A DNA stretch of 63,272 nucleotides, counting the filler, from Folioceros fuciformis (taxonomy: Eukaryota), in NCBI GenBank assembly GCA_049999805.1. It is 10 parts of 10 records of this genome, joined end to end, with 100 filler letters (N's around TTAATTAATTAA, not from the genome) between each part and the next. Parts side by side here need not be neighbours in the genome. Positions count along the whole stretch, not along the records: positions 10,142 to 17,821 come from JBNGIO010005064.1; 9 more parts are not named here. One strand, written 5' to 3'. How positions within the stretch are numbered: the first letter of the stretch is position 1; every line of letters starts with the position of its first letter. Shown here one piece after another: positions 2,420-27,998 of this stretch. The notes beneath the pieces are model-generated. The model did no database searches. It worked only from the letters and a program-made list of their open reading frames with translations, and was not told where the DNA came from. A program made the translations under genes and the position numbers.

Positions 2420-2421
2420 AA

Positions 2422-3020
2422 TGTAAGGAAACATCGATCTCGCCAACAAGCCCATGGCTCCCAAGGAAGAAAAAGCAAGCCCCCGCCATTCGTCCTCGTT
2501 TGGGTTCTTGACCCCAATTAGTTCAATCGCTACTTGGGTTAGTTACTATCTCGAGTTCGTCTAACTTGAGTTACGTAACCCCTAGTCCTAACCCTAACTA
2601 CCTAACTGGTTCTCTTCTAAACTCTAGGCATGCCTTAAGCTGATATAGTTGCAGCCATTGTTCGTGTGCTAGCAACTTCATTTGGGCACTGATCAGGTGC
2701 CCTATCCTAGTTCTCATCGAGCTACTCTTAGCTTGTAGGCTCTATAGAATTAGGGTATCCAGCATTTTAGGTTATTTAAGTTATTTAATTAATTAGGCCA
2801 AACTCAAATAGCAGCTGATACAAATCGCTAGAGTCGTATCGGTGCCCCTAATAGTCGCGACCTAAAAATCTAACCGACACCGTCCACGGGACACCACTCC
2901 AACGGTTGTCTTCACGCTTTTTAAGGCCCACGGCCTAATGCAAATTATCTCTTCTTCTAATCTTTCTCTTGCTCGATCCTAATCTAACCTTTAGGCTCAC
3001 GGCTATAGCTAGCCGTGACA
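2422..3020 (-). repeat. 5' LTR of the gypsy element
   Basis: Minus strand TGTCAC...TTACA; PBS on one side, abrupt start of copia RT coding sequence at 3021 on the other. Confidence 0.75.
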
Positions 3021-4424
3021 ATGAATAACATGAAGGTCATAAACCATGATGGTAAACCCAAGTACAAGGCACAATTAGTTGCTAAGGGTTTTAAGCAACA
3101 GCAAGGTATTGACTTTGATGAGATTTTCTCACCAGTTGTCAAAATGACCACTTTGCAATGTGTTCTTGCTTTGGTTGCAAGAAATGACATGGAACTTGTC
3201 CAGATGGATGTGAAGTCGGCATTTCTGCATGGTGATCTCCAAGAAGAGGTATACATGCAGCAATTAGAGGGTTTCATTGAGAAGGGCAAGGAGAATCTGG
3301 TGTGCAAGTTAAAGAAGAGCCTTTATGGTTTGAAACAGGCACCCAGAGAGTGGTATTACAAGTTCCACTCATTTATTCTTTCTCAAGGCTACAAATGTAG
3401 CGATGAGGATCATGGCCTCTATCCAAAGCAAGCTAAGGATGGAAGCTTGCTCATTTTGGTCCTCTAAGTGGATGATATGCTAATTGTTGAGAATAGCAAT
3501 AATGAGATTTCAGCGTTGAAGTCAAAGTTGAATGCTCGCTTTGACATGACAGACTTAGGAGAGGCCAACCATATTCTTGGCATGCATATTTGTTGAGACA
3601 GACAGAATCATTTGCTTTGCTTGTCTCAGACTGAATACATTAACAATGTGCTTCAACGTTTCAATATGGAGAAGGGGAAGGTATTGAGTACTCCGTGGCC
3701 TCCATATGTGAAACGTTCAAGCAAGGATTACCCAAGCTCTATAGAGGACAAAGCTGAAATGGAGAAGATTCCATACTCATCAGCTGTAGGGAGTTTGATG
3801 TATGCAATGATTGCTACACGTCCTGACATTGCTTTTGTAGTGGGAGTGGTTAGCAAGTTTATATCAAACCTTGGCAAGAAGCATTGGGAGGCAGTAAAAG
3901 GAGTTATGAGGTATTTAAATGGTACAAAAACTTTGTGCATATGTTTTGGTAGTGAAGATGTATCTGTCGTTGGATATACGGCTGTTGATTATGTAGGGGA
4001 TATGGACAAAAGGAGGTCCATATTAGGTTATGTCTTCATATGCATTGGAGGGGCAGTCTCATGGCGATCTCGTTTGCAATCGAGCATAACGCTATCTACC
4101 ACAAAGGCTAAGTATGTTCCAGCGACTGAGGCTTGCAAGGAAGCCATATGGCTTGCTCGTTTAGTTGGAGACTTGGGGATCAAGGTTGAGCTGTCATTGT
4201 TGCATTGTGATAGCCAGATTGCTATCCAATTGGCGAAGAATTCAGTGTTTCATGCAAAGACCAAACATTTGGAAGTGAAGTATCACTTCATTCGAGAGGT
4301 GTTGGAAGACAAGAGGGTGCAGATTGTCAAAGTTCATACTAGTCAGAACCTTGAAGATATTCTTACCAAGGGGCTCTCTACAGAGCAATTCGCACAAGCT
4401 CGGACACTCATGGGCATGAGGTAG
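3021..4424 (+). mobile_element. Degenerate Ty1/copia RT-RNase H
   Basis: KAQLVAKGFKQ, QMDVKSAFLHG, SLYGLKQAPR, *VDDM (YVDD motif hit by stop), HAKTKHLEVKYHFIRE; in-frame stops. Confidence 0.95.
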
Positions 4425-5196
4425 ACCGCTCTCCTATGAAGGTAAATGGTTGGCTTGCTCGTTTAGTTGGCCATCCACCATGACAAAAACCCTAGCTTGT
4501 CTAGGAACCACTTGAGATATCACCTCTTAGGCTGGACAACAAATCCCTACATATAATGTTTAGGATGACTCTCGCGCAGGTTGCAGAGACTCTAAACTGC
4601 GCTTGGAGTTGGGAGGGTGATTTCCACGACTCCTGTTCCCAATCCCATACGTCCCGTAGGAACACCATTTCCCTCAATCCAACATTCCGAAAGTGTTGGG
4701 ATCTTCTGATCTTGCATGCCTGCTCTGGTGACCACACGTGGGGGCAACCCTGTAGAGGTAACGCAAGGGCTTCTGAGCGTTTGTCTGGGAGTTGCCAGCA
4801 GGCCATAGCCAGACCCTTGCGGAAACTACTCAAAATGGAGTGCCACAACGGTGACCCTTCCCCTTGAGCCAACCGAACACGGTCCGCAAGAACATGCACT
4901 AGGCCCTGTTGACCAGCCTTGCTAAGTTGAGCGCTTTGGAGTCTAGTATTATTAAATAATGGGTTTATTATTTAAAGGGTCCAGCCCTAACTTATTAATT
5001 AAACTAGGGTTAGAGGTCAAGTTGAAACGTTGTTTTAAGTTTTTTTTTAGGGTTATGAATGGTTACGACTCTTTACACACACTTTCTTGTACCTTGCCAA
5101 CCCCTTTTTCTTATAATCATTCTCTTATGTGCTGATTGCTATGGCTTCTACCTATGCAAACTAATGAACCACAAACTAATGAACCATTCTTGTTTA

Positions 5197-5207
5197 TGGT
5201 ATCAGAG
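5197..5207 (+). promoter_or_regulatory. Orphan PBS-like site of another LTR element
   Basis: TGGTATCAGAG; no recognisable gag follows. Confidence 0.5.
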
Positions 5208-6104
5208 TAGGAATTGTTTCCATGCTTGGTGTGACGTATAATTGACCTTGTAACATCCAAATTTCATGGATACACAACAGGGCCAAATTAAAGACGTCCA
5301 CCACTTGCAATTATACATAAAATGTGTATTGGTCCTTTATAATCTCTAGCTATTTTGCTGTTCTAACCCCACAAACCTCCAAATCATGAAGAGGCGCTCT
5401 TTCTCCAGTCACTTGTGATCTCTCCAGTGACTGCACACAAGGAAACCTACCATAAATCAGTAAATGATCCTTAAATTTAATAAATTGTGTCCTTAAGTTC
5501 AGCAATTTTGCTTATTAACTAACCTAGTAGTGGAAATGACAAGGAAACATAATAAATCACAATCTTGTAGATGCCATTCACCTCAGACATCTACATGTGT
5601 CATTAGATGTTGTAATTGTCATCCAATAGCTTGTCATTTTCAATAATTCAGATCATACCTAAATACAAATAATATAGGTAAGTCAGAGACTGGAAAATAT
5701 AGCAAGTTAATCCAGAATCACCTGCACTATACAAAATTAAGTTACTACAGAAGGAAATTCTTGAATTGAAGCGCAAAACAAAATATGATACAAATATGCT
5801 ACTTTGGCAATTTGGTCAATTAGCATGTAAGCAAACCTGGCTAGAAAACAAATTTGATTTGGTAGATACGAAAACACATATTTTGCAACCTACAGCCAAG
5901 CCAGTTTACTCACGTTGTGATCCAATAGTTTCCTACATACCTAGTAGCAGTCCATATCAACCTCAACCTGAACCGGTAGGTTTGACCACTAGTAAAATGT
6001 CACAACTGCTAGAGCCAACTGACATGATACTTAGCAGCATTGCTAACCCTTTTAAACCGAATATAACCACCCTGTAGGATACCTACACAAGACAGGTCGA
6101 CTAA

Positions 6105-6296
6105 TGTGAACCTCCAAAGTTTGGGGTAGTAGTTTGTTTTGGTTGAAAAAGGGTTAATAGTGGTATGGTTTGGTTTTCTTTTTCAACTTATTTTTCCTAA
6201 TTTTCCTTGATTTTCTGGTCATTTTTCCTATTTTTCTTTGTGTTAATTGACCAGGAAATAGTTGGTTTGGTTATAAGAGTGGGTATAGGTTTGGTC
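6105..6296 (+). repeat. Dispersed repeat, probable LTR 5' end; second copy at 61766
   Basis: TGTGAACCTCCAAAGTTTGGGGTAG...GGGTATAGGTTT closely matches 61766-61971; both copies run into gaps. Confidence 0.8.
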
Positions 6297-6396
6297 NNNN
6301 NNNNNNNNNNNNNNNNNNNNNNNNNNNNNNNNNNNNNNNNTTAATTAATTAANNNNNNNNNNNNNNNNNNNNNNNNNNNNNNNNNNNNNNNNNNNN
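6297..6396. other. Artificial contig linker N44-TTAATTAATTAA-N44 (also 10042-10141, 17822-17921, 27899-27998, 40319-40418, 43786-43885, 56632-56731, 59727-59826, 62164-62263)
   Basis: Identical 12-mer with stops in all six frames centred in each 100-nt N block. Confidence 0.97.
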
Positions 6397-9266
6397 GGTG
6401 CCTGCTTCAAACCATAAAGGCTTTTCTTTAACCTGCACACTAGATTCTCTGTGCCCTTCTCAATGAAACCCTCTGGTTGCTTCATGTATACCTCTTCCTG
6501 GAGATCACCATGCAAAAATGTTGACTCCACATCCATCTGGACAAGTTCTATGTCGAGCCTCGCAACCAGACCAAGAACACATCGCAAGGTCGTCATTTTG
6601 ACAACCGGTGAGAAAATTTCATCAAAGTCAATACCTTGCTGTTGCTTAAAACCCTTCGCAACCAATCGTGCCTTGTACTTGGGTTTGCCTTAATGGGGTA
6701 TGTCCTTCATCTTATACACCCATTTGCATGGCAACGCCTTCTTACCCTTAGGCAACCGAACCAACTCCCAAGTTTGGTTCTTGTGGAGTGAATCCATCTG
6801 CGACTGCATCGCTTCCTCCCACTTGTCCTTGTCAATCACTGACATGGCCTCTTGGTAACAAGAGGGCTCCCCACAATCCGTCAGCATGATATAATCAAGA
6901 GATGCAACGTACCTGCCAGAAGGACGTGAGATCCTTCCTGACCTACGAAGCTATGGCGCCTCAACCGGAGCTGGTTGCACTCTCTCCTCTTGTACAAGTG
7001 GAGGAACTTGTTCCTTTTTATCACGACGTTCAACCTGTGCAGGACGGTCAAATCCATCTTCTTGAATTACCACCCGTCGCACCTCCACAGTTGGAGTAGG
7101 CTTCTTGTGCATCTTGGTCTCATTGAAGAACACGTCATTACTGCGAACCATTCTCTTGGCCTCTGGATCCCACAGACGGTATCCCATCTCACCAGATTCA
7201 CCATAGCCAAGAAAAATACATTTCTTGGACTTGGGTGCCAACTTGTTCCGAAACTCCTTAAGAACATGGTAGTATGCCTCGCAGCCAAACACTCGCAGAT
7301 GCTTGTATGACGGCTTCTTTCCAGACCACATCTCCTCCGGAACCTGCTCATCCACAGCTATATTAGGAGATCTGTTAATAAGATGCACCGTAGTAGCCAT
7401 TGCTTCGGCCCAAAATCCGTTAGGCAATCCAGAGTTTGACAATAAACTACGCATCCGCTCCTGGATGGTCCTGTTCATCCGTTCAGCCACACCATTTTGG
7501 GGAGGAGTATACGGCGCAGTCAATTCTCTCTTGATTCCCTTAGAATCACAGAATGACTGGAAAGCCTTTGAGACATACTCTCCCCCATTTTCTGTCCTTA
7601 GACACTTCAGTCGGAGGCCAGATTGAGTCTCCACAAGGGTGACGAATTTCTGAAAAACTGTCAGAACATCATCCTTTTTCCTCAAAGGATAAACCCACAC
7701 CTTGCATGAAAAGTCATCAATGAAAGTGACAAAATAAGATGCACCACCTAACGATACAGTGGGCATAGGTCCACAAACGTCACTGTGAACCAACTCAAGA
7801 GGTTTACTTTTGTGTTTACCTCTTGCTCCATGTGGTGACTTCGTCTGTTTCCCATACAAACAGTGCTCACACACGGAGAAATCGGAGAAGTCAAAAGCAG
7901 GGACGTAACCAAAACGAGATAAGATCTTCATTCCTTTTTGAGACATATGTCCTAACCGACTATGCCACAAGGAAACACTTGGCTGCTCCGTTACACAAAT
8001 CACATGATCCTTAACAGTGGTTACCTGAAGTGAGTACAAAGTGCCACACTTCTTTCCACGAGCTAACACAAGAGAACCTTTGGAGATCTTCCAAGAATTA
8101 TCTCCAAACCAACAGTGGTAGCCAACGTCATCCAACTAGTTGCCTTGCACTAATCATGCTTTTAGCCAACTTCGGAACATGCCTAACATCCTTCAGTATG
8201 AATGAAGATCCATTGTCGAACTTCAGCTGCACATCACCAACGCCTGCAATCTTGCATGTGTAGTTATTTCCAAGCCATACACATCCTTTCCTAGTAGCAT
8301 CATACGTGCTAAACCACTCCTTATGTGGAGTAACTGGAAAGATGCTCCAGAGTCAATTATCCAATTAGAGAATAAGTGACTCTCCACAGCTGTCAGTTGT
8401 GTAGAATCGAAGGAAGAAGAGATAAGAACATCTCCATCGTCAACATAATTCACCTCGTTAGGCTTGGTACTCGAACTTACCTTGGTGTCGGTTTGCTTCT
8501 TCTCCTTTCCTTCGTCCTTCTTGAACTTCTTGCAGTCCTTCCAGATGTGACCCTTCTTGTGACAATGGTAACACTCAACATTGTTACAACTACGAGATTT
8601 ACTACGGGAAGAACTTCGCTCCTTGTACTTCCCCTTTGAAGTGGACCTTCCTCTCACCATGAGGGCATTGGAACCTTTCGAAGGTTCCATATTCTTCCTG
8701 TTCACCTCCTCTGTTAACAGACTACCTTCTACATTTACAACGGTAAGACCACTGGCAGAAGCCGAATTACTCAGAGCTGTACGAAAGGTGTCCCAGCTCT
8801 CTGGTAATGTGACCAATAGAAACATAGCTCTCACGAAATCTGGAAACGAGATACCTTGAGATGAGAGCTGGCTGAAAATTGTATTGAACTCGTTTAGATG
8901 ATCGGACATCCTCGTCTCTTCCTTCATCTTCAAGTCCACCAGTTGTTTCAACCAGTACACCTGAGAAGCTGCACTTTGCTTCTCGTACAGGTCACACAAC
9001 TTCTGTCATAGCTCGTAGCTAGTGGTCTTGTCTTTCACGTTGAAGTAGACCGACTTCGACAATGTTAGCATGATGGTAGACCTAGCAAGCTCATCTAGAT
9101 CTTGCCACTCATCCTGAGTCATGCTAACAGGTTTCACTCCTAGCAACTTTATCGGCTTGATTTGCTTCTTCTGCACTAGAACATTGTACACTTGTTCTTT
9201 CCAGAACGGGAAGTTAATACCATCTAACTTCTCGATATTGAACATGACGTTTTCGGAGGACGTCAT
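6397..9266 (-). mobile_element. Ty1/copia gag-PR-INT-RT(5' part), lightly disrupted; same family as 3021-4424
   Basis: Gag start MTSSENVMFNIEKLDG, knuckle CYHCHKKGHIWKDC, protease WIIDSGAS, integrase LWHSRLGH/LVHSDVCGP/QNGVAER, RT VAKGFKQQQGIDFDEIFSPVVKMTT; stop at 9006 and frameshifts. Confidence 0.96.
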
Positions 9267-9449
9267 GATTCAAAAAACCAATGCAAATCAACTAAAAGGC
9301 TAGTTAGTAAACTGTCAGAATGTAATATAGATTCTCAAAGTTACCCTCATAACTTGTTCCAAATCGGATGTCCACAACTTGGGCTTCGATCGCTCACAAC
9401 TGGAATGTCTCCCATCGTCCGATCGAGATCTTGACTTCCACGGTCAAGA

Positions 9450-10041: not shown

Positions 10042-10868
10042 NNNNNNNNNNNNNNNNNNNNNNNNNNNNNNNNNNNNNNNNNNNNTTAATTAATTAANNN
10101 NNNNNNNNNNNNNNNNNNNNNNNNNNNNNNNNNNNNNNNNNGATGTAGATAAGGAAGGGCTTAAGGTTATTTCTTTTCTTTATCTTTTAGGAAAGACTTT
10201 TACAAGAAAAAAGAGCACCTCAAGATCCAACATAGAAATGGGCTACGGCAAAAGTTGGGCAACAACTTTCATGTAAACATCACATAAACCACCATATTAA
10301 AATAATCCAAAATCATTCTAGATCAACCATGATCTATACTCGGTGTTTTGGTTTCAAAACCCGGGCACCCAGTGTTTTTTGTGGACCTATTAGTCATGAA
10401 TGTCTTCATGATTCTTATCTTATTCATGCAAAACGCTAGTTACGAGATTTACAAAAAAATTAACGTGCCATCATCCTAGGATAGGCTATCTTGCAAGACA
10501 GGTTAAGGAAGGGAGGCGAAGGAGAAGGAAAGGATGCCACCAGCAAACGAAGGAGAGCTACCTGCAGTGTCGTCTGAAAGAAAGAAAGAGAAAGAAAGAA
10601 AGACGCAGAATGGGGGCCTCAGAATTTCAGGGCTTCCATAGGATGGCACCATGCCTCGTGAGATACGTTCTTCGGTTCGCTTGGTCCAAGATATCAATCA
10701 GAAGCATATCAAGCTACTAGTACCTCTCGCTTAAGCAAATGGATATGATTCGTGACCTCTGCCAAAACAGAAGGAGGAGAACAAAACTGAATACCTTACA
10801 CCATGCTGGGCATGAAATTCAACGTCCAGCACCACGTCCAAAAAAGTGTCTGACACTAAATCTGCCTA

Positions 10869-11724
10869 TCAGTTCTCTTCTTCAGCGATGGTTCCCTTCT
10901 CGCTGACATAAATTCCGTCCAAAAATTTCCGGATGTCTTTTTTCTTCACGTGACAGATCTGCGGGCAGCAACCACACCCACGGTTACTACTACATACACC
11001 AAGCCAAGATCTGTAACAAACTACAACGGCCAGTGATGAGTGCAGAAGAGGAGAAGACTCGAACCTGGTTGATAAGGGCTGCTGATCTCGAGACGAGCTC
11101 AATATCGTTGCCCTCCAGAATCAGCTCGTCCTTGGTCTTCTCAGACCTCGTAACCGTGACACCACCGAGCATGTCCACCTTCCGCACCTGCCACACATCC
11201 ATGTCGTTAACAGCACACCACAAAACCCTCACAAACGACCAGGAACCACAGGTTTAGGTCACAAATCCTCACCTTCTTCTCCCCCAAAAAGTTCCTGATC
11301 TCGATGTTGTCCTTCTCCGCGGAGATGCTGGCGTTGATAGGGAAATGAGCATACACAAACCTCATTCTGTACCGGTAGCCCTTGGTAACCCCGGTGAACA
11401 GGTTGTTCACGTGACTGATGGCGGTGCGGATAGCAGCCGTAGTCTTCCGGTTACCGAACCACGCATCCACCTGCAGCTTTGTGCCGTTCTCAATAATCTG
11501 GAAGTCCAGATTGAGGTGCTTAAAGTCCCGCAGCAAAACGCCCCGCGGCCCTGTCACTCGGACCTGGACGCCACAACCACGACACAGTCATCACCGGAGC
11601 TCAAATTCAGCTCGCCATCTCTTCCACCACCTCACAAACGAACCCCACGCACTTTCTTAGCCCTAATCTCCAGCTTGACGCCGGGTGGGATGTCCATAGT
11701 CTGCGACGCCTTGATGGTCTTCAT
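10869..11724 (-). CDS. RPL9: 60S ribosomal protein L9 (uL6); exons 11724-11653, 11563-11273, 11187-11065, 10958-10869
   Basis: [13 protein letters not shown]...VTGPRG...[10 protein letters not shown]...[16 protein letters not shown]; three GT-AG introns keep frame. Confidence 0.97.
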
Positions 11725-12163: not shown

Positions 12164-14553
12164 ATGGGGCTGGAGTTGGAGATGGCTACGGAGGAGCTTG
12201 GCCTGGCGGCAGACATGGACGACGTGCCGCTGCTGAGGGTGACGAAGGAGGCGAACGGATTCTCGGATTCAACATCTGCGGGCTACCACAATTCTCATCC
12301 TCTTGCACCTGTACCTGCGGAAAGGGAACGGGAAGTGGAGGTGGAGGAGCAGGCGGATGCAGAGGAAGTGGCAGTGGCGGAGGAGCTGGATTTGTTGCGG
12401 AGGAAGGAGGACAAGTCCCCGCTTTTGATGAAGGGACACGTTCCCAGCCATGTCATTTCCTCCTCCTCCAACGGCCTGGATCAGCAGCCACATCATGCTG
12501 CGAACGCGACTCTGGCGCAGTCCGACAGCTTGGAGGAGATGGAGGTGAAGTACGCAGCGTATGTGAGGAAGGATGCGTACGGTACCTGGGGTTCGGGGTC
12601 GGTGACGATCTGGGAGGCTGCCAAGCTCTTTCTGGCGGTGCTCGTTGTGGCTCCCATTCGCGTGGTCTCGCTGCTCTTCGTACTTGTGCTCTTCTACGTT
12701 ATTTGCCGGGTCTGCACACTGTTTCGGACACCCTCGCAGCAGGTTCTAGCTCAAGCTTTTGGTTTGGGACTTGCAAGCGAGCTGTCATGTGAATTCCTGC
12801 ACACCAGCTCCTCTGGTCCCCAAGCCAGAGCTTCCTTCTTGTATCGGATGTGGAGCGGGTTCTAACCTAATGTTGCCTTGCAGGACGGACTAGAGGGCTA
12901 TGGACATCTGACAGGTGTTCGCCGCTCCATTATTTTTAACTCGGGCCGTTTCTGCGCACGGCTAATTTTGTTCATTCTCGGTTTCTACTACATCAGTGAG
13001 ACGGAGAGGGACACTGAGCTGATGGAACGGCTTCAGCTTGGCTTGGGAGAACCAGGCGAGGTATTTATTGCCATGGAGTCCGTGGGACTTGTTGCTGAAG
13101 CGTAATGCTATCTTTTGGCCCGCGAATTCTGAAGGAAGGAGCTGGATATGCCCTTGTCATTTCCTTGTTTTGCTGGGGCAGGGCAATGAGGAAGTCGACG
13201 ATTCCTCGGTTCGAGCAGGTGCTATTGTTTCGAACCACATATCGTATTTGGACATACTTTATCACATGTCCGCGTCGTTTCCAAGTTTTGTGGCGAAGGT
13301 GTGCAGTGAATTGCTAGTTTTTTGATGCCGGATTATTCTTTGTGCTACATTGACTAAGAAGCAGATGGCAGTGAGCTGGTTTTCTTACCGTCGTTGCCAC
13401 ATGTCCTTTTTCTACGGTCATGTGTTTTGGTGCGAATTTGAAGAGATCAGTGGCCCGAATACCTCTCGTGGGTTTGATCAGGTGGGTTGTTTTAGTGTCG
13501 ACGACTTGCATCTCAATTGGTACCAATCTCAATTTGGCTTTTCCAAAACTGGAGCTCGCAACTGACAAGTTCATGCGAATGGTTTGGTTTTTTCTTCCTG
13601 ATGTCCCAGCAAGTGCCTAGGATGCGTTTATGTGCAACGAGAATCGAAATCTACTGACTTCAAGGGAGTTTCAGGTTAATCCCACAAGTCAAAGTTCTCG
13701 TACATCGACTGTGTCTATGTTTGTTCAATCATTTGCAAGACCACGTGTTTACTCTGTCCTCATATGGCTTTTTTGGTTCTCTTGCAGGCGTAGTTGTCCA
13801 GCGGTTGCAGGCAGCAACGCAACATGCGGAAGCACCATCCCTGCTGCTCTTCCCAGGTGGTGACCTAAAATCGTGATGCATACTGTTGATGTTGTTGTCA
13901 GCGACAGTGGTTGAAGTGCATTGCTTAAGTAGGGAATTAATTTTCGTCTTACTTATCTGTTTCTTTGCAGAGGGCACAACCACCAATGGCGATTATGTGC
14001 TGCCTTTCAAGACTGGTGCATTTCTTGCAGGGACTCCTGTACTGCCAGTGATTTTGAGATATCCTTACGTCAGGTTCAGTCCTGCTTGGGACACCATATC
14101 AGGGGTAAGGGGCAGCATGGTTCCGTGGGTTTTGGAAGAAACCGCGAGTTGTTGTGGATGAGCTCAACCAAGTGTCTTGTCTTTGGGTTGTGCAGGTGCG
14201 ACATGTATGTTTACTGCTCTGCCAGTTTATTAACAATTTGGAAGTTATCAGACTACCACTGTATCGTCCATCGGCAAAGGAGCGTGAAGACCCAAAATTG
14301 TACGCGCAAAATGTTCGCAGGTTGATGGCTGCAGAGGTGAGTTTGAGGCCCTGGGTTTCGGCTATATTTCATTGATTATCTTGAAATTCGACGCTCAGTA
14401 GTTCTTGCGCTTCATACGGTGGTCATCGTGTTCTGGCAGGGGTGCTTAACGATGGCAGATATTGGCCTACCTGAGAAACGTATTTACCATTCCGCTCTTC
14501 GTGGTAACAGTCTTCCTAAAATCCGGGATGAGAAGCATGGGAAGTCGGACTGA
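12164..14553 (+). CDS. LPEAT1: Lysophospholipid acyltransferase, LPEAT1-like; 9 exons (approx. 12164-12742, 12884-13060, 13182-13298, 13444-13481, 13610-13674, 13788-13856, 13971-14104, 14196-14336, 14439-14553)
   Basis: NHISYLD (HxxxxD), FPEGTTTNG, FKTGAF, FSPAWDTISG motifs; GT-AG introns; start could be 12182. Confidence 0.93.
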
Positions 14554-15420
14554 ATGCTCCTGCGGAACTTCAGCCTTCTAACTCATGCTCCCGTGTGCAT
14601 ATGTTGATTTTTTCCTATAGTCGAGTAAATGTGATAACGCAATTATGAAAAAGCATATTGACCTAAGCTCTGTTGAAGAGCAAAAAAAAGTAATTATTTC
14701 TATGCGATTACTTTGCTTGCCAGAAATGAGATGCGGGAGTAGCAGCTGACGATGCGTGTGCCAGGTATGTTGTGCTGCAGCTCGATTCGGTGGTTTCATT
14801 CTTCATGTCCCACTGAAAGAGAGCCTGCTGCCTACCCTACCAACCCTTCTTGGGAATGTGTTTGTTCCATGTTACTGTCCAATCCCAGATGGACATTCTT
14901 CCTACTACCACTGGCGGTTTGATTCTCCATGTCCTTCTCTGACAGACCTTGCTGTGCTACCCCTGGCAACAAGCGGCTTTCTCTTCGTGCATAAGACCTG
15001 CTCACTCTCAGCAACAACGAAAGCATGGTTGAAAGCAACTGATTCTTGCTGTGGTCTGTGTAGGGTAGCGATCTCGGACACCAGCATCTTTCAAGTAGAA
15101 CAGTGTGTGGAATTTTCGGAGTTAGTCCCTTGTGCATGTTATTTACTGTCTCAACCAGATAGTCCTCGATTTAGCGCTAGCCTCTCCGTTCTCCCGCCTC
15201 GCTCGTCTAGTGGGTCTCTGTCTACGCAATCCCCTGTTTCTCGAGCCATAACAACTACATGCTCGTACTTTATTCTATTTTATTCGCGAGACTAACGGCC
15301 GCTTCCGTGCACCATTGGGTACGTACTTGATTCTAAAAAATGGTAAAATTGATGTACAGGATTGGGTTTACAGGGACATGTACAGGTCAGGAAAGATGGG
15401 TCCACTGACAATCCTCGCTG

Positions 15421-17065
15421 CTAGTTGGGCAGGAGATTGAGAGTAGCGGTGTGCTTGGCGGCCACCGAACCGACGGTCCGTCTGTCCAATGTGGCCACAT
15501 TTGGAGTAGAGAGCCGCTCCGCCAAGGCCAAAACGGAGGAAGCTGCATTGCCCAGCTTGGTCTGTCTCCAGAACCTGAGAAGGCGAGCGAACGAAGACCA
15601 CTCCCTCCACGACCCAGGACAAACAACCTCGAAAACTCCTGTCTCGACGCATCTGTACAGAAAGAGCTCCAATTGGGCTCCTCTCATTCCTCTGATCTTG
15701 CTCCGGATGAGCTGAGTCGCTTCTGTGATGCACTCCTGTGTGAGCACCTTTCTGGACTCCCCCATGAGCTCCACAGCCCGCAGACAGAGCGGGGAGTAGA
15801 GGTCATCGCTGTCCAGCAGGGCCACCAGGAAAGACGAGTCCAACACCCAGACTTCACTGGACTTGATGGCTGAAGCCGCTGTCTTTCCGCCTATCTGCAG
15901 CTGCGACACGAAGGGAGCATGTACAAAATCAAAGGGTGCAGGGAAGACTGCGGAAATGTGGCTGCGAAGATCAGGGATCAAAAGCGACGTGCTAACCTCT
16001 GTGCTTCCCTCCTCGGATCTGGACTGCAGGTCAGCACTATCGTTGAGTGATCGTCCTGGTTGGGGATGCCTGGCCTGGTCTGCAGGGAACCTGGAGCACA
16101 GCAGGGGATGAATTCGGTTCACGTTTTGCAGGAGGAAGGAAGGTCGAGAGAGGTGAAGTGCGCACCACAACCCGTGCTTCTTTCGGAGCTCCCAGATCCG
16201 GTCATAGCTGCTGCTGGATGCGCCTTCCAAGGAACTGAAAGTCGTCAAGGGATCTCGTCTATCTGCCCACTGAGGGCAGCAGCGGCAGTGACATCAGATA
16301 CAGATCTGAAGCACCCCGAGGTTGCCGCGAAAACAATTCCACATCCCTGGCCCCCCTTCAACACACTGTTCCTTCTTACCTGAAAATCCTCGGCCCGGAA
16401 GCTCCATTCCTCATCCTCTGCACAGCCATTCAAACAGCGTCCCGGACGTGAGCACAAGGCTCAATGTAGCTCAAGGGCAGAAGCGAATCCCGTTCCCCCT
16501 ATCACACACCTTCGTTCCCGGGCAAGGCATCCAAATCCGCTGCGATGTCCCACGGGAGCTGCACTTGTTGCAGCATAGCCAGGGTTTTCAGCCCGTCTCT
16601 CAGAGCCTGGTAGCCCGCAGAGGACGTTTCCTCCGTTGCCGCTGACAAAACTGCCCTGACCGTGTCCACATCATCACGCGGGCTCAGGGAGCCCCAATCC
16701 GCCATCCAGGAGGTGGAGGCGGTACTGGCTGTCAATCCCTGCGCCCAGCCATTCCCACTCCCCATGTTCATCGCACACAAACAGAAGCCCGAGCTGGTGC
16801 ACTAAACCACTGTCGTCCCTGCCAGCCACCCAGTCCGGGCATGGGGTGGAATCCTCACCTCGGTGGCCGACAGCGCCATATCCTGCGCATGCGCACTCCG
16901 CCGGCTGAAATGTGGGCTCTCCCGGGGCACCGAATTCGAAACGCCGCCCCGCACCTGCAAGCCAGTCCGGGAAGCGGGGGAGCCCTGAGAACGAGCCTGG
17001 TGGGCGGCCCAGTGCGGGTGACACGACACTTCACCACCCAGACATGTCTGCAGCCTGAGCGCCAT
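15421..17065 (-). CDS. Spliced gene (~383 aa) with transit-peptide-like N-terminus and C-terminal VapC-like PIN domain; exons 17065-16859, 16738-16510, 16417-16380, 16269-16166, 16090-15997, 15900-15421
   Basis: Five GT-AG introns join into one stop-free 1152-nt frame; last exon has VLDSSFLVALLDSDD...ITEA...SVLALAERL...VATLDRR...LNLLP, the pattern of prokaryotic VapC/PIN proteins. Confidence 0.8.
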
Positions 17066-17921
17066 GAGCTGATACAACGAACCAAGGAAGAAAGGCACAG
17101 GCGCAGCTCTGGAGCCGCCGCAGCTGCAGCTGCAGGAGCAAGGGCGGGTGCAGGAGAAGGAGCAGGCGTAGGAGCAGGTGCAGGTGCAGGTGCTTCAAAC
17201 ACAAGATCTCGCAGCCTGTAGAGCCTTTTCATCCGACAGGGTGCATGCTGCTCCCATCTCCGCAGCTCCGGTCCCCACAAATCCGGTACCAGAATGGGAA
17301 GCCGGGCCAGCTAGAGGCCGAGGCCTCTTCAGGATCCCAAATGTACAAATAAGATGCAGAAAGCGGGAAAGTCACATGGCAATATCACCGAAATCGTTGG
17401 CGAAGCCTCCTGTGGTTTCACCTTGCCAGGATCACACAACGTGTCTCGGGCTTCGGGATATTTGGAGGCCTAGTAAAATACCGCGGACTGAGGCCGGGCA
17501 GATGCTGTAAGGGCGTCTCCGGTATCGGACATCGCGCGGCCAGATTCTAAACTCACTGGCTGCTTATCCCAAGTCTGATCTGGCACGTCTGATCTTCAAG
17601 TTGAGGAGCATCATCCCACGCTCTCTTCAAGTTGCAGAGCAGGCACCGTGCGACGTAACGGTGTTGCCAGGCAGACTTCACGCGTGTTGGGTCTGGTTAG
17701 AACGTGACAGCCGGAGGGTGTGCCCTGGGGAATGTTGTGCACGGGCTTTGGTCAGACCCCCCCCCCCTGTCTGCCGGGATGCCTTTTCCTCCTTGGCTGC
17801 TGGAACATAACACCTCCAGGCNNNNNNNNNNNNNNNNNNNNNNNNNNNNNNNNNNNNNNNNNNNNTTAATTAATTAANNNNNNNNNNNNNNNNNNNNNNN
17901 NNNNNNNNNNNNNNNNNNNNN

Positions 17922-18675: not shown

Positions 18676-21600
18676 ATACTGCTTTGTTCCCGGGACGAGA
18701 ACGAGGACGAAGTAGAAGTAGAGGACGAGGAGTCTTTGGACGTGGCAGGGGCTAGTCATCCAATTATGGAAACAACACCTCTCTTCAAGGTGGGAAGAAG
18801 CCCGGTAATTGCAATTACTGCAATAAGCCAGGGCATTGGATTAAAGATTGCAGGAAACGAAAAGCGGATGAGGCAGCAAAGGGAAAGCAACCTGAAGGAC
18901 ATACTGCGAGAGCCTTGATTCTGGGGTTACTTGTAGCTTGCCTCAATTCAGTTGCTTGTGATACACATCGATGGTTTCTTGACAGTGGAGCGTCGAATCA
19001 CATGTGCTCATCTCGAAAGCAGTTTGTTACATATGAACGTGTTCCAACCTGCCACAAATCAGTAGTCTCGCTAGGAGATAATTCAAAAGTCCCCATTAAG
19101 GGTGTTGGAAAAGTCCAAATCCCCTTGAAGTATGGAGGGACTTTGAGGCTAGAGAATACCTTACACGTACCTTTGCTTGCTAAAAACTTGGTGAGCACAA
19201 TGGCACTTGGTAAGACTGGCCTCTACAGAATCACCTTCGAGGGTACGTCGCGTGTGATCTCTACATTGGACTCTCCCACTAGGGTCATATCTAGGAGGGT
19301 TCTCCCTTGTATGATCTATATCTACTGGATTTCGTTTCCCTGACTTCATCCAAGCCTGCAGCACACGCAGCCGGAGTGAAGTCAACCGCAAGTAAGGCCT
19401 TTCATTGGCATTGCCGGCTTGGTCACCCCAACATTAAGGCTATGCGAAGGCTACTCTAAGAAAAAATGGTAACAGGATTTATGGAATCCGAATTATTTGA
19501 CTTGGATTTGTGCGTGGTTTGTGTACATGGGAAACAATCTAAGTCCCATTTTGGTAGTGGTAAGCCACGCAAGCCCATAGATATTCTTGATCTTATCCAT
19601 ACAGACATCTATGGTCCATGTCTGTGGCCTCATGGGGAGGAGCTCGTTACTTTGTTGTGTTTGAAGATGATATGTCTCATTTCACTGTAATGGAGGTCCT
19701 GCAGTATAAGAGCGAGCTATTTGAGAGTTTTAAAGATACTTAGCATATGCTGAACGACAAACAGGCAAGCAATTGAAGTGCATCTGTTCAGACAATGTTA
19801 AAGAGTATCTTTCTACAGCCTTCCAACAGTTCTGTCTGGATAAGGGGATTACTTGACAGTTGACAATTCCCTATCACTCTGACATGAATGGAAGGGCTGA
19901 GAGGAGACATTGTACTATACAGGATACAGCTCGCTCCTTTCTGTTTCAAGGGAGGCTATCAATACGTTTTTTGGGCAGAAGCAGTTCAAGTTGCTACTTA
20001 TCTTCAAAACAGGATTGCCGTCTCTTCTCTTCATGGGGTAACACCGTTTGAGGAGTGGATAGGTCACAAGCCTGACTTATCTCATCTTTGCATTTTTGGT
20101 AGTGTAGCCTATGCCCACATTCTTGACAAGCTGCGACATAAGTTTGCCTACAAGTCTAGAAGGCATATCTTCATTGGGTACACTACTGGAATTCATGGGT
20201 ACAAGCTCTTCGACCCTACCTCACGCAAAGTCAGTCATGCTAGGACTGTTGTATTTGATGAGCACCCTATCTTGAAGCCTTCAGCAGTGGTTGATCCTGT
20301 AGACTATGAATATCCAGACTTAGTACCTGAGACAGACGAGAACTTATCCTCAGAGGTAGATTTAGATGTTGTTGAATTTCCTATCTCTGACCCTTCTTTT
20401 ACTGATGTCACTCTCTCCGCTCTGGACACACCTCTACCAACTCACACCTTTGAATCTCATACTAATGATTACAACTTGTCTAATTCAAACTCAGCCACAG
20501 GTTTCGAATAGCCTGCAGAAATAGTTCATGTTCCTCCTGCTCCCATCGACTTACCTGTTTCAAACCTTGAGGTTGATGACCCAATGCAGTTTGTATTACC
20601 TCTCCCTGATCCCCCTGAACATCCAGTTCCCCTCTTCTCGACCCCATAGGACTCGAGAGGAATGGTTAGAGAAACCATACAGACCGGAGGCTTGGGCTGG
20701 ACGCCAGGAGCCACAACTTGTTTCACGCTCGGTTGCCACTGGATCTAGAGAGACGATTAGAGATACAGCTCATGTTGCAGTCAACCCTGGTCATGAGCCT
20801 CAGTCCTATCATGAGGCCCTTACCAGTCCTGAATCCAAGCAATGGAAAGATGCTATCAAGTCTGAATGACTCTCTTATTTCCAATAAAACCTGGGAGCTT
20901 TGTAGAGCCCCTCAGGGGAGGAAAATTATGATGAGTAAGTGGGTCTTCAAGCTGAAGTATCAAGATGATGGTTCCATTGCCCATTATAAGGCTAGGCTGG
21001 TTGCTTGTGGCTTCTCACAAGTCCCTGGGCTGGACTATCATGATACATTCTCCCCTGTGGTCAAGGCTCAGTCTCTTCGAGTTTTGTTTGCCATGTCAGC
21101 CTTCTTCTCTCTCTTTATACATCAGATGGATGTCAAGACACCGTTTCTTCATGGCAAGCTGGAGGAGAAGATCTACATGCAACAGCCCGAAGGTCATGAG
21201 ATTGCTGGCAAGGAGGACTGGGTATGCAAGTTGCTCAAGACTATTTATGGTCTAAAGCAAAGTCCAAGAGCTTGGTATGAGTGCATAGATGAGTTCTTAT
21301 GAGATTTGGGCTTCATGAAGTCTTCAGCAGACTCTAATGTGTATCTGCTTCATGATGACATTGGCTATGTCATCTTGGCCTTGTACGTTGATGACTGTAT
21401 TCTCCTAGGTACTGACCTGCCAAACATTGAATGTGTCAAGTCCTTACTCTCAGGAAGGTTTGACATGGTGGACGTTGGTGAGTTGTCCTACTATTTGGGG
21501 ACACAGCTCCTACGAGATCCTCAAGAAGGCAATTTAGCTATACACCAAGAAAAATATATATTTGATATGCTGCATAAGTACAAGCTCCTAGATGCTAAAC

Positions 21601-24099
21601 CTTCCTTAACCCCTATGGAGGCCGGCAGTATCTATTGAAAGAGCAGTCACCTCAAACTGCTTTAGAGAAAGACCAAATGATGAGCGTACCGTATTCTCAG
21701 GCTGTTGGCTCCTTGATCTTTTGCTCTAACCATACAAGACCTGATATCTCCCTTCTAGTGAGTATGGCCTCTCAATTCTTGAAGGATCCTGGACAGATAC
21801 ATTGGTCAGCAGCAAAACGTATTTTGAGATACCTGAAAGGTACCAGTAAACATGGGATATACTACTCAAAACTAAAGTCATCCAAGGACTCTCTTACACT
21901 GACTGGTTATTGTGATGCTGGTTGGGCATCAGACCCAGACACAAGAAAGTCGATGTCAGCTTATGTCTTCTTATTAGCTGGTGGCATAATTACCTGGTCA
22001 TCTAAGAAACAATCCACAGTATCTCTGTCCTCTATAGAGGCAGAATACTCTGCTCTCACTAAAGCCCTTCCTAAGGTAAAGCACAACCTATTTAAGGAGA
22101 TGCTAGGAGTCTTAGACTCCAGCAGTATTGAAATGTCTATTTGAGGAGTGACTGACTGTTGTGTGTTACCAGTAGGGTAATTGTGCTCACAGTTCTTAGG
22201 GAGTCTCAGATCCTGAGCTTGTGCCGTCAAAGAACAGGGATCTCCTTTCTTCCCCCCTTGCTTTTAGTATCCCGAGGTAATTGGAGTCGAAATCATGTTC
22301 TGGTTCCTCTTCAGTGTCCTCGTCCTCAGTTGCAGAGGGTATCACTACTTCCTCATTTGGTATGTCCCTGGAAACTGCAAGTAACACACACGCACAATTA
22401 GTATTTCAAAGTAAGCCCTTCAGTCCTTCTCTAAACCACAACAAGAGTGGGAGGCCTTAGAGTTCTGAAGTTGCTTACCATTAAAGGATATAAAGCTCCC
22501 ACTAGAACCTCCCCACCTGTACCACTCCTCCCTTTTCATGGCTATTCCTGTCTCAGTACAGATATACATCTCTGGAGTTAGAGGGTTGTTTACACCGTCA
22601 CCGTCAGAGATCAGCCTCACCGTCTTGTTAGGGGGGTCTCTTGGCAAGGAAAAAGTTCTCCCTCGATATCTCATCGGCAACACAATCTTTGTCTCTCTTC
22701 CCTGAGGTAGAACAGCGCTATTGAGGGGACCACAAGATGAAATGAAATTAGGCAGGACAGGAGTCTCAGGTTTAGGAATTTGATCTGCAGAGTGAGCAGT
22801 TGGGTTGTGACGCATTCTTGACTACTCTGGTTCCCTCTTGAGCTCAGACTCTCGCTGCTCCAGCTTTGTTTACCTGGTCCTCCTAGTATCTGTTCATTCG
22901 GCGGCTCTCTTGTCTGCACATGTGAAGCCACTTGGGTGTTTGCCCGTGCCGAGGATAGTGTGGTGGACGCTCGGGGCAGATGCACATAGCTTGGTTTTCT
23001 TCTAGAGTTGGATATCTTGGTGCAGGAACTGGCGGAGGGTGCTCGCAGAACTCGTTAGAGGCAGTGGGAGCAGCACCCATGTCTTCAACCTAACTCCCCT
23101 CCAACACCTGGTGTCTCTCATCTAGGAGCTGGATCTACTGGTTGAAGAGAGTCGCTAGTCTCTTAGTCTAAGATATGAATCGGGGCGCTTATGGTCGCTC
23201 CTACTGCACCTCTATTCGCCATAGCTGATTCTTCTGGCTACAGGGTTCTGAGGTTGGAGATGCAAGCCTCAAGGAGCGTCTCTTCTTGGTACTTGAAGGC
23301 TCTATCAGCGCAACTGCACGAGTGAAGGAGCTTTGATAAACCCTATGTAGACTCAGGGTTTTGGGTTCTGGCTAGTTGTTAATTCGATAAACTTATAAAT
23401 GCCTACACCTCACTAAGCTGGTTAGCAATGAGTGGGAGTGTTAAAGGTATTATTTAGACCTAAGTATACATTGCTACCACTTAGGGTTAGTGATGGTTAC
23501 ATACCGTTTCAGGTTCTTAGACTATATACTTTATTTGCTTTCATGTTTTTCCTTAATGCAAGCCTACATGCTTTGTGGTCAGATGCGACTAAGGTTGTGT
23601 GCCAGTTGATCACAAATATCAACAAGTACTTGCAAGGAGTGTGACTTCCTCAAACTCCACTCACTCGTTACTACTCCTTCCCTTGCACAACTAGCGATTC
23701 CCTTGGCAAAGCTATTGAGTATCGTCTGGATGACACTTAGCTTGATGATGTTCAGGCTCAACCCCCTATCTTGGCAAACCCTAAGGATATAGTCAACCCT
23801 AAAGCTGTTTTAGATCCAATTCAACTCGTCCCTCCTGTTGTCCCTATCCCCCAAGCTACTGATGATCACCTCAACCTCAGAAAGCAAGCTCTCTAGTAAG
23901 GTTATGTATGCATTAGTATATCTAGTTGCATATCTAGTAGTACAAAGATACATATCAAGTTGATGTCTATACTTATTAAGGTATTGCCATTCATGAAGTT
24001 TATATATATAAGCATGAGCTACCTATTCTAATGTATGGTCCTAAAGGTATTCAATGATCTGGATTACAGTTGATCCTTGACTTTCTATTGTTTCTAACA
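18676..24099 (+). mobile_element. Degenerate Ty1/copia: gag end, PR, INT, RT, deleted RNase H, 1.3-kb 3' region, PPT and LTR (23439-24099)
   Basis: CNYCNKPGHWIKDC, WFLDSGASNHM, LIHTDIYGP, HQMDVKT, IYGLKQSPR, LYVDDC, ITWSSKKQ; GAGTGGGAG before TGTTAAAGG; many stops and frameshifts. Confidence 0.9.
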
Positions 24100-24854: not shown

Positions 24855-27800
24855 TGTTGGAATGTATCTCATCAATGAAGTAAAGGTTAAGAATAATAGT
24901 TATTTATCCAGCATTACTTAATTACATAATAATTAGGGCAGATAGTAAACGGGTAGATTACAATCGACACAACTAAAGGGTTTTGACTCAAAACACAACA
25001 GTCATGCACTTTCGCGGCCACGGGACACCACAATGGTTGGTCTCATGACTATTTAAGGAGCCACACGGCTCTTCCTTAATCTATCCTCCTATTCTCTAAT
25101 CTAGCTTGCCTGCTCTCTCGATCCTACAAGCTTTATGGTATCAAAGCTATGGAGGGTGCGTCGCCACCACGCATCTGTGCGACCTGCAAGAGCCTGAACT
25201 ATATAAAGAACCTGTCTATTGTAGATTTCAGGGTGGCAACTTTAGCACTCAGAGTATCTCTTACCAGGTTTGGCGCGATGGCCGACGCATTCCTTGCAAA
25301 CGCCGTGAGCCACTATTACGAGTGACTCTGCGCTATGCCAAGAGCACAAGGTAGAGGCAAGAACCTGCCGAGAGATCCTTTCTTTGGCGGTCGTGGCGCG
25401 TTGAAGGATATCCACCTGCAGAATCTGCATTGCTTCTTTGACACGCATTGCAATCTCTATCCTCCGCACACGCACAAAGTCAAGAAGAGTCAGTATAGGC
25501 GTCACACAACGTAAGTCTGTTAGCGACACCAGAAATCTGACTCTCCTGTCTCACCTAGAAGCCGGATTAGGCAAAGGTTTCACGAATCACACGATTTTTC
25601 TGAACAAAGAAGACATCACTTTGCACATCCTAGGACTGAAGCATCACCCGCACTGTTCGATAGGTCGCTGATAGAGGTGCTCCATTTGATTAGGTCACAG
25701 ACAGCTCAAGTCCACAATCTACTTGCGACTCACGCTGCACAGGCGTGGCAGCGATCCGTAAACCTGTCCAATGAGATTAACAACATTAATACTCACATTA
25801 GAACACTGACAGGACAGATTAAGAATCTTACAGTGTTATCCTTGAAAAATTCTGCACTTGAGTCTTCTTCACTTGCACCGGTTCATATCACAAGCGCACC
25901 GGTTCACATCTCGCAGCAAGAAGAAGAACGACCAATCATGAAGATGATCAAGGTTATTCAGAAATATTATCCAAGCCGCGTGGAGCAGCTGGCAGCCCTT
26001 GAAGCTAAGGCTGCACTACCTTTGTGAACCCCTGTACATGTCATACAACGCCCAAGGACGTGGAAGTAAGGTTCCGAAAGGTACTAGAAAAGTCAGAGGC
26101 ACAGGCAGGGGTGTCATACTTGTATCTAACACATTACCTGAAGATCCACTCTCACTTTACTCCCAGTCCTCATCACAAGGTAGTTCAGATACTGTAGATC
26201 CAACACTAGCTGCCATTCAAAGAGCACGTCTTGCGAAAGCCTTAGCAGATACACGTAGAGACCAAGCAGCATTGGTCGCACAAACACTTGCGTCACAAGT
26301 AATCAATACAATGGCCAGTCAAGTACCTATTGTCACTACCTTGAAAGTAGACTTTAAGGAGAAGGACCGCTTCTCTGGCACTCAGTTCGACATCTGGTCT
26401 CTTAAAGTACAAACTATTCTCAAGGAAAATGGGCTGTGGCGGGGGTAGTCAATGGTGCTCTACCCAAACCTCTTGCTGCCACTTCTACTCCTGCTGCAAT
26501 TGAGGCTTGGGAGAAGCTCGATCTTCGAGCTCTTGCTGTTATCCAGTCCGCACTGGATGGATCTATGATGTCACATACACAAGATGTGGCCACCACCAAG
26601 GAAGCATGGGACTCTCTCACGCATACCTATCAAGTTAACAATGGCTCTTCAATGGTTGGCGCCACAAGAGCATTCTACAACTGCAAGATGCGTGAACATG
26701 AATCAGTCGAGCAACATGTGGTGAAGTTTAGACAACTGAGGTCTAAGCTTACCTCAAGCGGAACGAAGACCACGGAGATGCAAGCGGTAGTTGCTCTTCT
26801 TCTCTCTCTTCCTCCCAGCTATCGGACTTTTGTAAGCAACCAGAGTTCTGCACTGCGTGTTGCAGCCCAGAATACACCAGCAGGACAGGCTCCTGCTGTC
26901 ACGTTATCTGATGTGATTGGAGCTCTTCTCAAGGAGGAGTCCACCAAAACTGTCAATCAAGGCGGCACCTCCTCCCGAGGAGAGTCATCCACAAGGGCGC
27001 TATACGCAAACAAGGGGCCCAGGAGACAACCACCAAGGCAGTCCTGGACACCAAACAACAACAACGCTGCTTACAAGAAACGTTCACCTCAAGCTCCAGC
27101 TAAAAAGAAGGGGCCTTGCAACTGGTGTCTCATTCCTAGACACTAGGAAGCCGACTGCAGAAAGAAGAAGGCCGGCGAAGCCATAAGATCGGCACCACCT
27201 GAATCTAATGTGGTACAGCGTAAGGCAAACACTCTGCTAGTTGTATGCATGGTCTCCACCGCATCCAATAAGCATGTATGGTTTATAGATTCTGGTGCGT
27301 CTTCTCACATCTGTCACTGCAAAAAGTCTTTCATAGAGTACAAGCCATTGCCACCTGGACAATTCGTATTGCTTGGAGATGACAGTGGTTTGCAAATAGA
27401 GGGGATAGAGTTAGTCCTTGTCACTCTATTTGACAAAACTACCTTGGTCTTAGAGGATGTTCTTCACGTACCTTTAATGGTCAAGAACCTAGTGTCAGTC
27501 CGCAAGTTCACTACCCAGCATTTGTTGAATGTGTCCTTTATAGGGGTACAATGTACAGTTACTGATCCACAGTATAAAAATAAGTTAGTAGCAACTGGGG
27601 CACCATTCCACGACCTGTATCAATTAATGTCACCTCTAAGCTAGGTCTACCTCCTACACGTGCACAAGTCAACATGAGTCAGGACACCAAGCAGAAAGAC
27701 AAGGATGCAGCTATGTTGTGGCATTGCCGTCTAGGCCATGCTAATTTCGAGAAGATCAAACAAATGGTGGCCAGCACAACTCTGTACAGAGAAAAATTCA

Positions 27801-27898: not shown

Positions 27899-27998
27899 NN
27901 NNNNNNNNNNNNNNNNNNNNNNNNNNNNNNNNNNNNNNNNNNTTAATTAATTAANNNNNNNNNNNNNNNNNNNNNNNNNNNNNNNNNNNNNNNNNNNN

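Follow-up and report, generated by a model that had tools for sequence, protein, structure and literature searches.

A VapC-type PIN domain of bacterial kinship in the last exon of a spliced nuclear gene of Folioceros fuciformis

How would the toxin gene of a bacterial toxin-antitoxin pair come to stand among the nuclear genes of a plant, and how much of its activity would it keep there? The question is raised by a gene on the minus strand of a 63,272-nucleotide stretch of DNA from Folioceros fuciformis (assembly GCA_049999805.1; 10 parts of 10 records joined end to end, filler included), referred to here as the window. The gene lies in the part taken from record JBNGIO010005064.1 and has six exons, the last of which encodes a PIN domain of the VapC type. 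An initial annotation, made from the letters alone, had proposed a domesticated toxin that was acquired by endosymbiotic or horizontal transfer and may act on plastid RNA or ribosomes. To our knowledge, it is rare for the toxin of a bacterial toxin-antitoxin pair to occur as a working nuclear gene in a plant. Full-text literature searches turned up no VapC-type gene described from the nuclear genome of a plant, and nothing that describes this gene as a characterized plant gene. In the PIN-superfamily catalog (PMC5499597), the passages that mention plants, chloroplasts, Viridiplantae, or horizontal transfer name DUF1308, NYN, YacP, and PRORP and no classical VapC, and its supplements may list rare eukaryotic members. 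The kind of gene is a known one, namely, a horizontally acquired bacterial domain remodeled in a eukaryotic gene. The reading that we prefer, and to which we give somewhat better than even chances, is that of a spliced nuclear gene carrying a horizontally acquired and remodeled VapC PIN domain that would no longer be a classical endonuclease.

The gene model and the kinship of the last exon

The frame reads through 383 codons without a stop over six exons and five GT..AG introns, and its two ends are exactly those given in the initial annotation (Table 1). Exon 1 is likewise as described there, opening with MA and rich in Ser, Arg, and Ala; its 69 residues include 13 S+T, 9 A, 7 R+K, and 4 D+E. 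All five introns are confined to the added 5′ part, and the bacterial part lies entire within exon 6. Among stop-to-stop frames, this part forms the last 159 codons (15900-15424; translation P0001) of an open stretch of 290 codons at 16293-15424 on the minus strand. Upstream of the ATG at 17065, an in-frame stop occurs at 17197-17195, with no further same-frame ATG in between. The G+C content at third codon positions (GC3) of the coding sequence, 0.69, is inside the 0.64-0.73 range of the exons of the neighboring ribosomal protein gene uL6/RPL9.

Splicing was examined with the contigs of one public run, X1, aligned to the window. X1 contains 75% of the sampled words of 15200-17400, and its contigs skip all five introns with zero letters differing from the window. 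The shorter sides of the joints measure 228, 38, 26, 92, and 92 letters for introns 1 to 5, respectively; intron 3, the weakest of the five, has the shortest side and is also spanned by an unspliced contig of 166 nucleotides (nt) at 16244-16409. As a set of 49 million letters of contigs that skip segments bounded by GT..AG, X1 would most simply be read as a transcriptome. Independent support for splicing comes from P0002, a eukaryote-like library protein discussed below: compared with the unspliced 290-codon frame, it shows a 25-residue gap precisely over the codons of intron 4. In two further runs, X2 and X3, short contigs over the 15200-17400 region cover solely the low-complexity 17162-17193, with mismatches.

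Exon 6 is confirmed as a VapC-type PIN domain by both descent and fold. Pfam returned PIN (PF01850) alone, at 16.7 bits (E = 0.012) and thus under the gathering cut-off of 23.6 bits; P0002 had no Pfam PIN match at E ≤ 0.01, and NCBIfam had no family for exon 6 nor for five bacterial relatives. The link to Pfam PIN is instead transitive, since the five bacterial relatives checked all score above the cut-off on PF01850 (43-59.5 bits) and a profile of 38 bacterial relatives scores exon 6 at 98.0 bits (E = 4.3e-29), its sole match among 1611 six-frame segments of the window. Every motif quoted in the initial annotation (hhDSS.LVAL.D..D, TE, ALAERL, ATLDRR, and L.LLP) is present in the last-exon translation, and the likeness proposed there, to VapC26 of Mycobacterium tuberculosis, held in sequence and structure alike. 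In a phmmer search of all PDB sequences, the sole match was VapC26 (5x3t_B, E = 0.0015). The AlphaFold2 model of the domain (predicted local distance difference test score, or pLDDT, 89.5; predicted template-modeling score, or pTM, 0.83) has the three-layer alpha/beta/alpha arrangement and parallel beta-sheet of the PIN fold. Foldseek placed VapC26 5x3t_B on top (E = 2.8e-8, template-modeling score 0.86), followed by PAE0151, VapC20, VapC15, and VapC30, and all 9 matches at E ≤ 0.001 were prokaryotic PIN/VapC chains. VIA-align gave Z scores of 18.0 for VapC26 (root-mean-square deviation 2.3, 136 aligned), 16.9 for VapC20, and 14.8 for VapC30; among the 104 chains at Z ≥ 8, human NOB1 (7wtw_y) reached 9.3 and a 90S pre-ribosome chain, 5jpq_d, which we take to be UTP24-like, 9.0. 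The NOB1 and UTP24/Fcf1 PIN nucleases have the superfamily fold in common with exon 6, with a much weaker fit than VapC26. SMG6 was absent among the fold matches listed, which is still compatible with distant kinship within the PIN superfamily. The model of P0002 ranks its fold matches in the same order as the window domain, and an Atlas search of the PIN domain returned PF01850 in 30 of 30 matches, all bacterial.

A library of 1.84 billion representative proteins searched with exon 6 yielded 53 matches at E ≤ 1e-3, 2 at E ≤ 1e-10, and 1 at E ≤ 1e-30, mostly of 130-155 amino acids (aa) and 26-40% identity. The alignment used below holds P0001, P0002, and 38 of the other 52 matches; the 14 dropped were short or partial matches, two tandem-PIN proteins, and P0003. 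The last of these, a 1499-aa repeat protein with 16 matches to residues 110-136 only (summed E = 8.2e-24), was rejected as a short-motif artifact and not a relative. P0009 (371 aa) and P0052 (363 aa), the two with tandem PIN domains, carry their PIN pair ahead of a basic tail, an arrangement unlike that of single-domain toxins.

The nearest sequence relatives of exon 6 are P0004- and P0008-like PIN proteins from pairs with ribbon-helix-helix (RHH) proteins in soil and groundwater metagenome-assembled genomes (MAGs), at 33-40% identity and a best single E of 3.7e-9; they have the C-terminal ...LLP end in common with the gene here. Unlike it, they are 135-155 aa long, have the third acidic D in 38 of 38 cases, and have an RHH antitoxin gene in front. 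None of them has been experimentally tested, as far as we know. A genome scan with a P0004-centered alignment found 422 relatives among 437 pattern matches, and the best 80 of them, selected by likeness to P0004 and not to the plant protein, were taken as the bacterial locus set. These loci are in MAGs of Solirubrobacterales, Gaiellales, Thermoleophilia, Chloroflexota, Acidobacteriota, Myxococcota, Nitrospirota, and others. An open reading frame ends at the PIN start in 80/80 loci, and in both of the 2 loci checked it encodes an RHH_1 protein above the Pfam cut-off (30.4 and 34.7 bits). By architecture, then, the bacterial relatives are RHH-PIN toxin-antitoxin pairs; VapB26 is an RHH protein as well, according to the account of the VapBC26 structure in PMC5737657.

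The active site and the N-terminal extension

That account places the VapC26 site at Asp4, Glu42, Asp97, and Asp116, with Asp4 and Asp97 contacting Mg, His119 bonding to Asp97, and Phe120 conserved (PMC5737657). Exon 6 and VapC26 (5X3T chain B) have the same PIN fold, and the first Asp followed by Ser/Thr, the Glu, the last Asp, and a C-terminal T-L-D-R-R motif align between them. Unlike VapC26, at 21-22% identity, the exon-6 domain has Ala, Thr, and Val at Asp97, His119, and Phe120, respectively, and it belongs to a eukaryotic nuclear gene with no VapB partner and with about 225 extra N-terminal residues from five more exons. The acidic set of the PIN metal site is thus incomplete, with three of four acids present and the third replaced by Ala. 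No alternative letter for this GCT codon (15543-15541) occurs in the X1 contigs, and P0002 has lost the same three residues. These losses tell against the initial annotation's proposal of a toxin acting on plastid RNA or ribosomes.

The remainder of the domain is unevenly conserved. Among the 38 columns with at least 70% bacterial agreement, the window copy keeps 21 and P0002 keeps 15, and residues 21-40 of the domain are identical between the two at 19 of 20 positions, compared with 52% overall. An invariant Asp lost and a 19/20 block kept suggest a pocket that is partly dismantled in a domain that is still constrained. Two features of a working VapC toxin, an adjacent antitoxin gene and a complete acidic set, are missing from the gene here. 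Given the residue losses at the equivalents of Asp97, His119, and Phe120 and the lack of an antitoxin remnant (below), we consider it doubtful that the gene product works as an active toxin-like RNase. Judging from the residues, the classical two-Asp metal site appears to be lost; a pseudo-nuclease would then have slightly better than even chances, an altered or weaker enzyme a distinctly smaller though substantial share, and a relic a small one.

In the N-terminal extension, residues 1-40 include one acidic residue only, and the composition of exon 1 is compatible with a transit peptide, so that targeting to an organelle is possible. Exon 2 matched no Pfam family and no homolog among longer proteins, and its best Atlas score was 0.87, with recognition below the mark. 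The segment encoded by exons 4 and 5 is conserved with P0002 though it lies outside the PIN domain. In the model of P0002, this mid-segment forms helices at 47-56 and 62-67, with a mean pLDDT of 89 over block 51-60, whereas values elsewhere in the extension fall below 50-70. We also considered the extension as a fused antitoxin. A profile was built from 60 RHH antitoxins, from 60 of the 80 bacterial loci and passed through a start-motif filter; over the N-terminal parts of the window protein and P0002 it scored 0.0 and -0.8 bits, and the idea was rejected at the level of sequence. The same profile found no antitoxin remnant among the 1611 six-frame segments of the window, where its best score was 7.7 bits (E = 0.53).

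Origin and function weighed against the alternatives

P0002 (252 aa, 52% identity, E = 4.6e-39) is the sole eukaryote-like match in the 1.84-billion library. It derives from Logan contigs, is alone in its 90% cluster, and retrieved itself alone when compared with library proteins of similar length. Exon 6 had no match among longer library proteins, and the window's own protein is absent from the libraries. A careful maximum-likelihood tree of 59 rows, built without P0003, the tandem-PIN pair, and 7 representatives shorter than 120 aa, places the window protein and P0002 as sisters with 100/99 support; the stem that they share measures 1.5 changes per column. Their clade lies inside the P0004-like bacterial group, next to the metagenomic P0008 at 98/87, and a quick tree agrees; the PIN phylogeny called for by the initial annotation therefore nests both copies within the bacterial family. 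A metagenome scan for P0008 found relatives only at 41-43%. Given this narrow distribution and a clade with 100/99 support inside a bacterial family, lineage-restricted horizontal transfer is favored over plastid inheritance. The best fit is a single acquisition by horizontal transfer with rapid change afterwards within a narrow lineage, the direction and the timing of that transfer being inferred.

The events that we envisage begin with a bacterial VapC gene of an RHH-VapB/PIN-VapC pair, from which the last exon would descend. Its frame would have entered a narrow eukaryotic lineage by horizontal transfer, after which the antitoxin partner would have been lost. The frame would also have gained five exons, separated by introns and totaling about 225 codons of new 5′ sequence, which supply the acid-poor, Ser/Ala/Arg-rich N-terminus, the orphan acidic region, and the conserved helical mid-segment. 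The domain retains a fold like that of VapC26 and three of its four acids, and it has lost the Mg-binding Asp with its adjoining His/Phe. Rather than a classical VapC endonuclease, the resulting protein would probably be a pseudo-nuclease module that binds RNA or ribosomes or, at most, a nuclease of weakened or altered activity, and it may work in an organelle. Several points weigh against this reading. That X1 is RNA is a guess, and the run comes from a single study and consists of contigs that carry no strand. The term "narrow lineage" rests on protein libraries without the window's own protein, and the best 80 named loci, picked via P0004, are spread over Actinomycetota, Chloroflexota, Acidobacteriota, Myxococcota, and others. 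Finally, for all the length of their stem, both copies retain the equivalents of Asp4, Glu42, and Asp116 and the Ser-Ser that follows the first Asp, a retention that hints that the pocket is still in use and is compatible with a modified nuclease.

Two other accounts of the origin have to be weighed. Because all relatives of the PIN domain are bacterial, one may suspect bacterial contamination or a chimeric assembly. Such an explanation would have to accommodate spliceosomal introns within one frame that are bridged by contigs, eukaryotic genes and copia elements on either side in the window, and a single contig linking the PIN gene with the neighboring acyltransferase gene, and on the present data we regard it as excluded. 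The initial annotation had argued against contamination from RPL9 and LPEAT1 on the same contig, and uL6/RPL9 and acyltransferase exons were indeed located in the window. The window is eukaryotic and plant-like, and the gene is genuine, spliced, and nuclear. The other account concerns the source only and supposes an old cyanobacterial gene, acquired by endosymbiosis, that has survived in a few lineages and disappeared from the others. Cyanobacteria have abundant VapBC pairs, as stated in PMC3834315, and P0008, the nearest bacterial row in the tree, is a metagenome protein without phylum assignment and so leaves room for such a source. Yet the libraries hold only one other eukaryote-like sequence, no cyanobacterial locus is among the 80 named loci, the best of the 422 relatives, and the bacterial part is whole in one intronless exon. 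Ancient plastid inheritance is disfavored because loss nearly everywhere would be required, and we consider it very improbable. Of the two routes left side by side in the initial annotation, horizontal transfer thus gains from the position of the clade inside the bacterial family, and the endosymbiotic one loses from the very narrow distribution.

As for function, the strongest competitor is a domesticated VapC-type endoribonuclease that is still active, is imported into the plastid or mitochondrion, and cuts organellar rRNA (at the sarcin-ricin loop) or tRNA. The closest structures, VapC26 and VapC20, are cutters of the sarcin-ricin loop, the target named in the account in PMC5737657; three of four acids stand in both copies, the stretch that is 19/20 identical is proximal to the active site, and the N-terminus is acid-poor and rich in Ser, Ala, and Arg. 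However, the equivalent of Asp97, one of two direct Mg ligands in VapC26, is Ala in one copy and Val in the other, the His/Phe neighbors are lost as well, and neither an antitoxin nor a remnant of one is there to restrain an active toxin. We therefore think an active enzyme of this kind unlikely; were activity retained, the gene would become a candidate for regulating translation in organelles. A more specific version, in which a ribosome- or tRNA-cutting toxin of the VapC26/VapC20 type was domesticated in a narrow plant lineage as a nucleus-encoded, organelle-imported regulator of translation in the organelle, with the conserved helical mid-segment serving as a cis antitoxin or supplying the missing active-site group, has in our view a low probability. 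Equally improbable would be a relic, transcribed yet without function, that a recent insertion of bacterial DNA left behind and that is drifting to a pseudogene. It would explain the loss of an invariant catalytic residue, a Pfam score under threshold, the modest retention of conserved bacterial columns (21/38 here and 15/38 in P0002), the great rarity of the gene, and the many upstream ATGs, if the leader is truly long. It would not lead one to expect a frame open across six exons with canonical splice sites, a second copy of about 50% identity likewise open over 252 residues, a 19/20-identical block together with a conserved mid-segment of non-bacterial kind, or a host-like GC3.

A PIN domain that has lost active-site acids has parallels elsewhere in the superfamily. 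The PIN domain of SMG5, a degenerate one beside the active SMG6, has the fold minus the catalytic acids yet is under selection. SMG5 belongs to a different PIN lineage and is absent from the best 50 fold entries listed, and no partner PIN is known for the gene here. A composite SMG5-SMG6 PIN has been reported in PMC12923823. The C-terminal domain of DUF1308 (PF07000) is described in the PIN catalog as a eukaryotic PIN-like domain of the VapC group without active-site acids, "probably of chloroplast-origin" (PMC5499597). DUF1308 occurs widely across animals, plants, and fungi, and its N-terminal part is PD-(D/E)XK-like, whereas the gene here is very rare and has an orphan N-terminus, and Pfam found no match to PF07000 in it. 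What the locus puts on display is a possible taming route, with the antitoxin gone, the bacterial frame whole in one exon, five new exons, and the metal-binding Asp replaced. It may offer a compact case of how horizontally acquired toxins lose or change their activity; for now, it is a well-documented curiosity with a limited range.

Transcript ends and genomic surroundings

Table 1. Features of the PIN gene and its surroundings in the window. Active-site residues are numbered along the exon-6 translation, and bacterial counts are over 38 aligned rows, with equivalence taken from the VapC26 alignment.
Feature	Position	Strand	Description
Whole frame	17065-15421	minus	six exons, 1152 nt, 383 codons + stop, no interruption
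Exon joins	17065-16859, 16738-16510, 16417-16380, 16269-16166, 16090-15997, 15900-15421	minus	
Start ATG	17065-17063	minus	
Stop codon	15423-15421	minus	
Transcribed stretch 5′ of ATG	17066-17500	minus	5′ leader or overlapping neighbor transcript
Exon 1	16859-17065	minus	residues 1-69; possible organellar presequence, from composition
Intron 1	16739-16858	minus	120 nt, GT..AG
Exon 2	16510-16738	minus	residues 70-145; acidic, orphan region
Intron 2	16418-16509	minus	92 nt, GT..AG
Exon 3	16380-16417	minus	38 nt
Intron 3	16270-16379	minus	110 nt, GT..AG; weakest read support
Exon 4	16166-16269	minus	opens mid-segment conserved with P0002 (DRRD...LRKKH.LW)
Intron 4	16091-16165	minus	75 nt, GT..AG; in frame, stop-free
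Exon 5	15997-16090	minus	closes conserved mid-segment, then acidic/Ser-rich linker
Intron 5	15901-15996	minus	96 nt, GT..AG
Exon 6, coding part	15421-15900	minus	159 codons + stop; whole bacterial-type domain, no internal intron
VapC-type PIN domain	15427-15855	minus	residues 16-158 of exon-6 translation (P0001)
Asp4 equivalent, residue 21	15838-15840	minus	bacteria D 38/38; window D; P0002 D
Glu42 equivalent, residue 60	15721-15723	minus	bacteria E 38/38; window E; P0002 E
Asp97 equivalent, residue 120	15541-15543	minus	bacteria D 38/38; window A (codon GCT); P0002 V
Asp116 equivalent, residue 139	15484-15486	minus	bacteria D 36/38; window D; P0002 D
His119 equivalent, residue 142			bacteria H 27/38; window T; P0002 N
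Phe120 equivalent, residue 143			bacteria F 32/38; window V; P0002 M
3′ untranslated stretch	15062-15420	minus	contig piece 15062-15900; overlaps end of convergent acyltransferase gene
uL6/RPL9 exons	10993-11587	minus	Pfam; beside PIN gene
Acyltransferase exon	13877-14158	plus	Pfam; gene converges on PIN gene 3′ end
Ty1/copia pieces	559-9269, 18756-22141, 25948-27641, 38787-39287	both	
DEK_C exon	46733-47524	minus	45.9 bits
GrpE exon	52889-53548	minus	80.4 bits
Pairs of 44-N runs	6297-6396, 10042-10141, 17822-17921, 27899-27998, 40319-40418, 43786-43885, 56632-56731, 59727-59826, 62164-62263		nine pairs, 12 real bases inside each
100-N runs	34968-35067, 37402-37501, 38222-38321		three runs

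At the 5′ end, one X1 contig is continuous and unspliced from 16858 past 17500, which points either to a transcribed stretch of at least 435 nt 5′ of the ATG or to an overlapping neighbor transcript. Eight upstream ATGs occur in 17066-17821 and are relevant if the leader extended to 17821. A low-complexity stretch rich in GCA/GCT occupies 17100-17232, immediately 5′ of the ATG, and a 124-codon frame rich in Ala/Pro, which begins at an upstream ATG at 17232, overlaps the main start. The pair of N runs about 760 nt upstream of the ATG (17822-17921) limits statements on the promoter. In all, the window holds 1092 N.

At the 3′ end, the X1 contig covering exons 4-6 extends into the acyltransferase region by jumping from 15062 to 14762, passing over 299 nt. 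The skipped segment has AG..GA ends on the plus strand, non-canonical on both strands, with a good GT donor 2 nt on, at 14765; in a plus-strand reading, the joined form meets a stop shortly past the joint. The segment may represent the final intron of the convergent acyltransferase gene, or sample and assembly may differ here by an indel.

The island of uL6, acyltransferase, and PIN genes is flanked in the window by the Ty1/copia pieces. These carry the Pfam domains RVT_2, rve, gag_pre-integrs, Retrotran_gag_2, and Pol_BBD, with DUF4219 weak and under the Pfam cut-off, a set that we take to be typical of plant copia elements. Elsewhere in the window, further host genes are represented by the DEK_C and GrpE exons.

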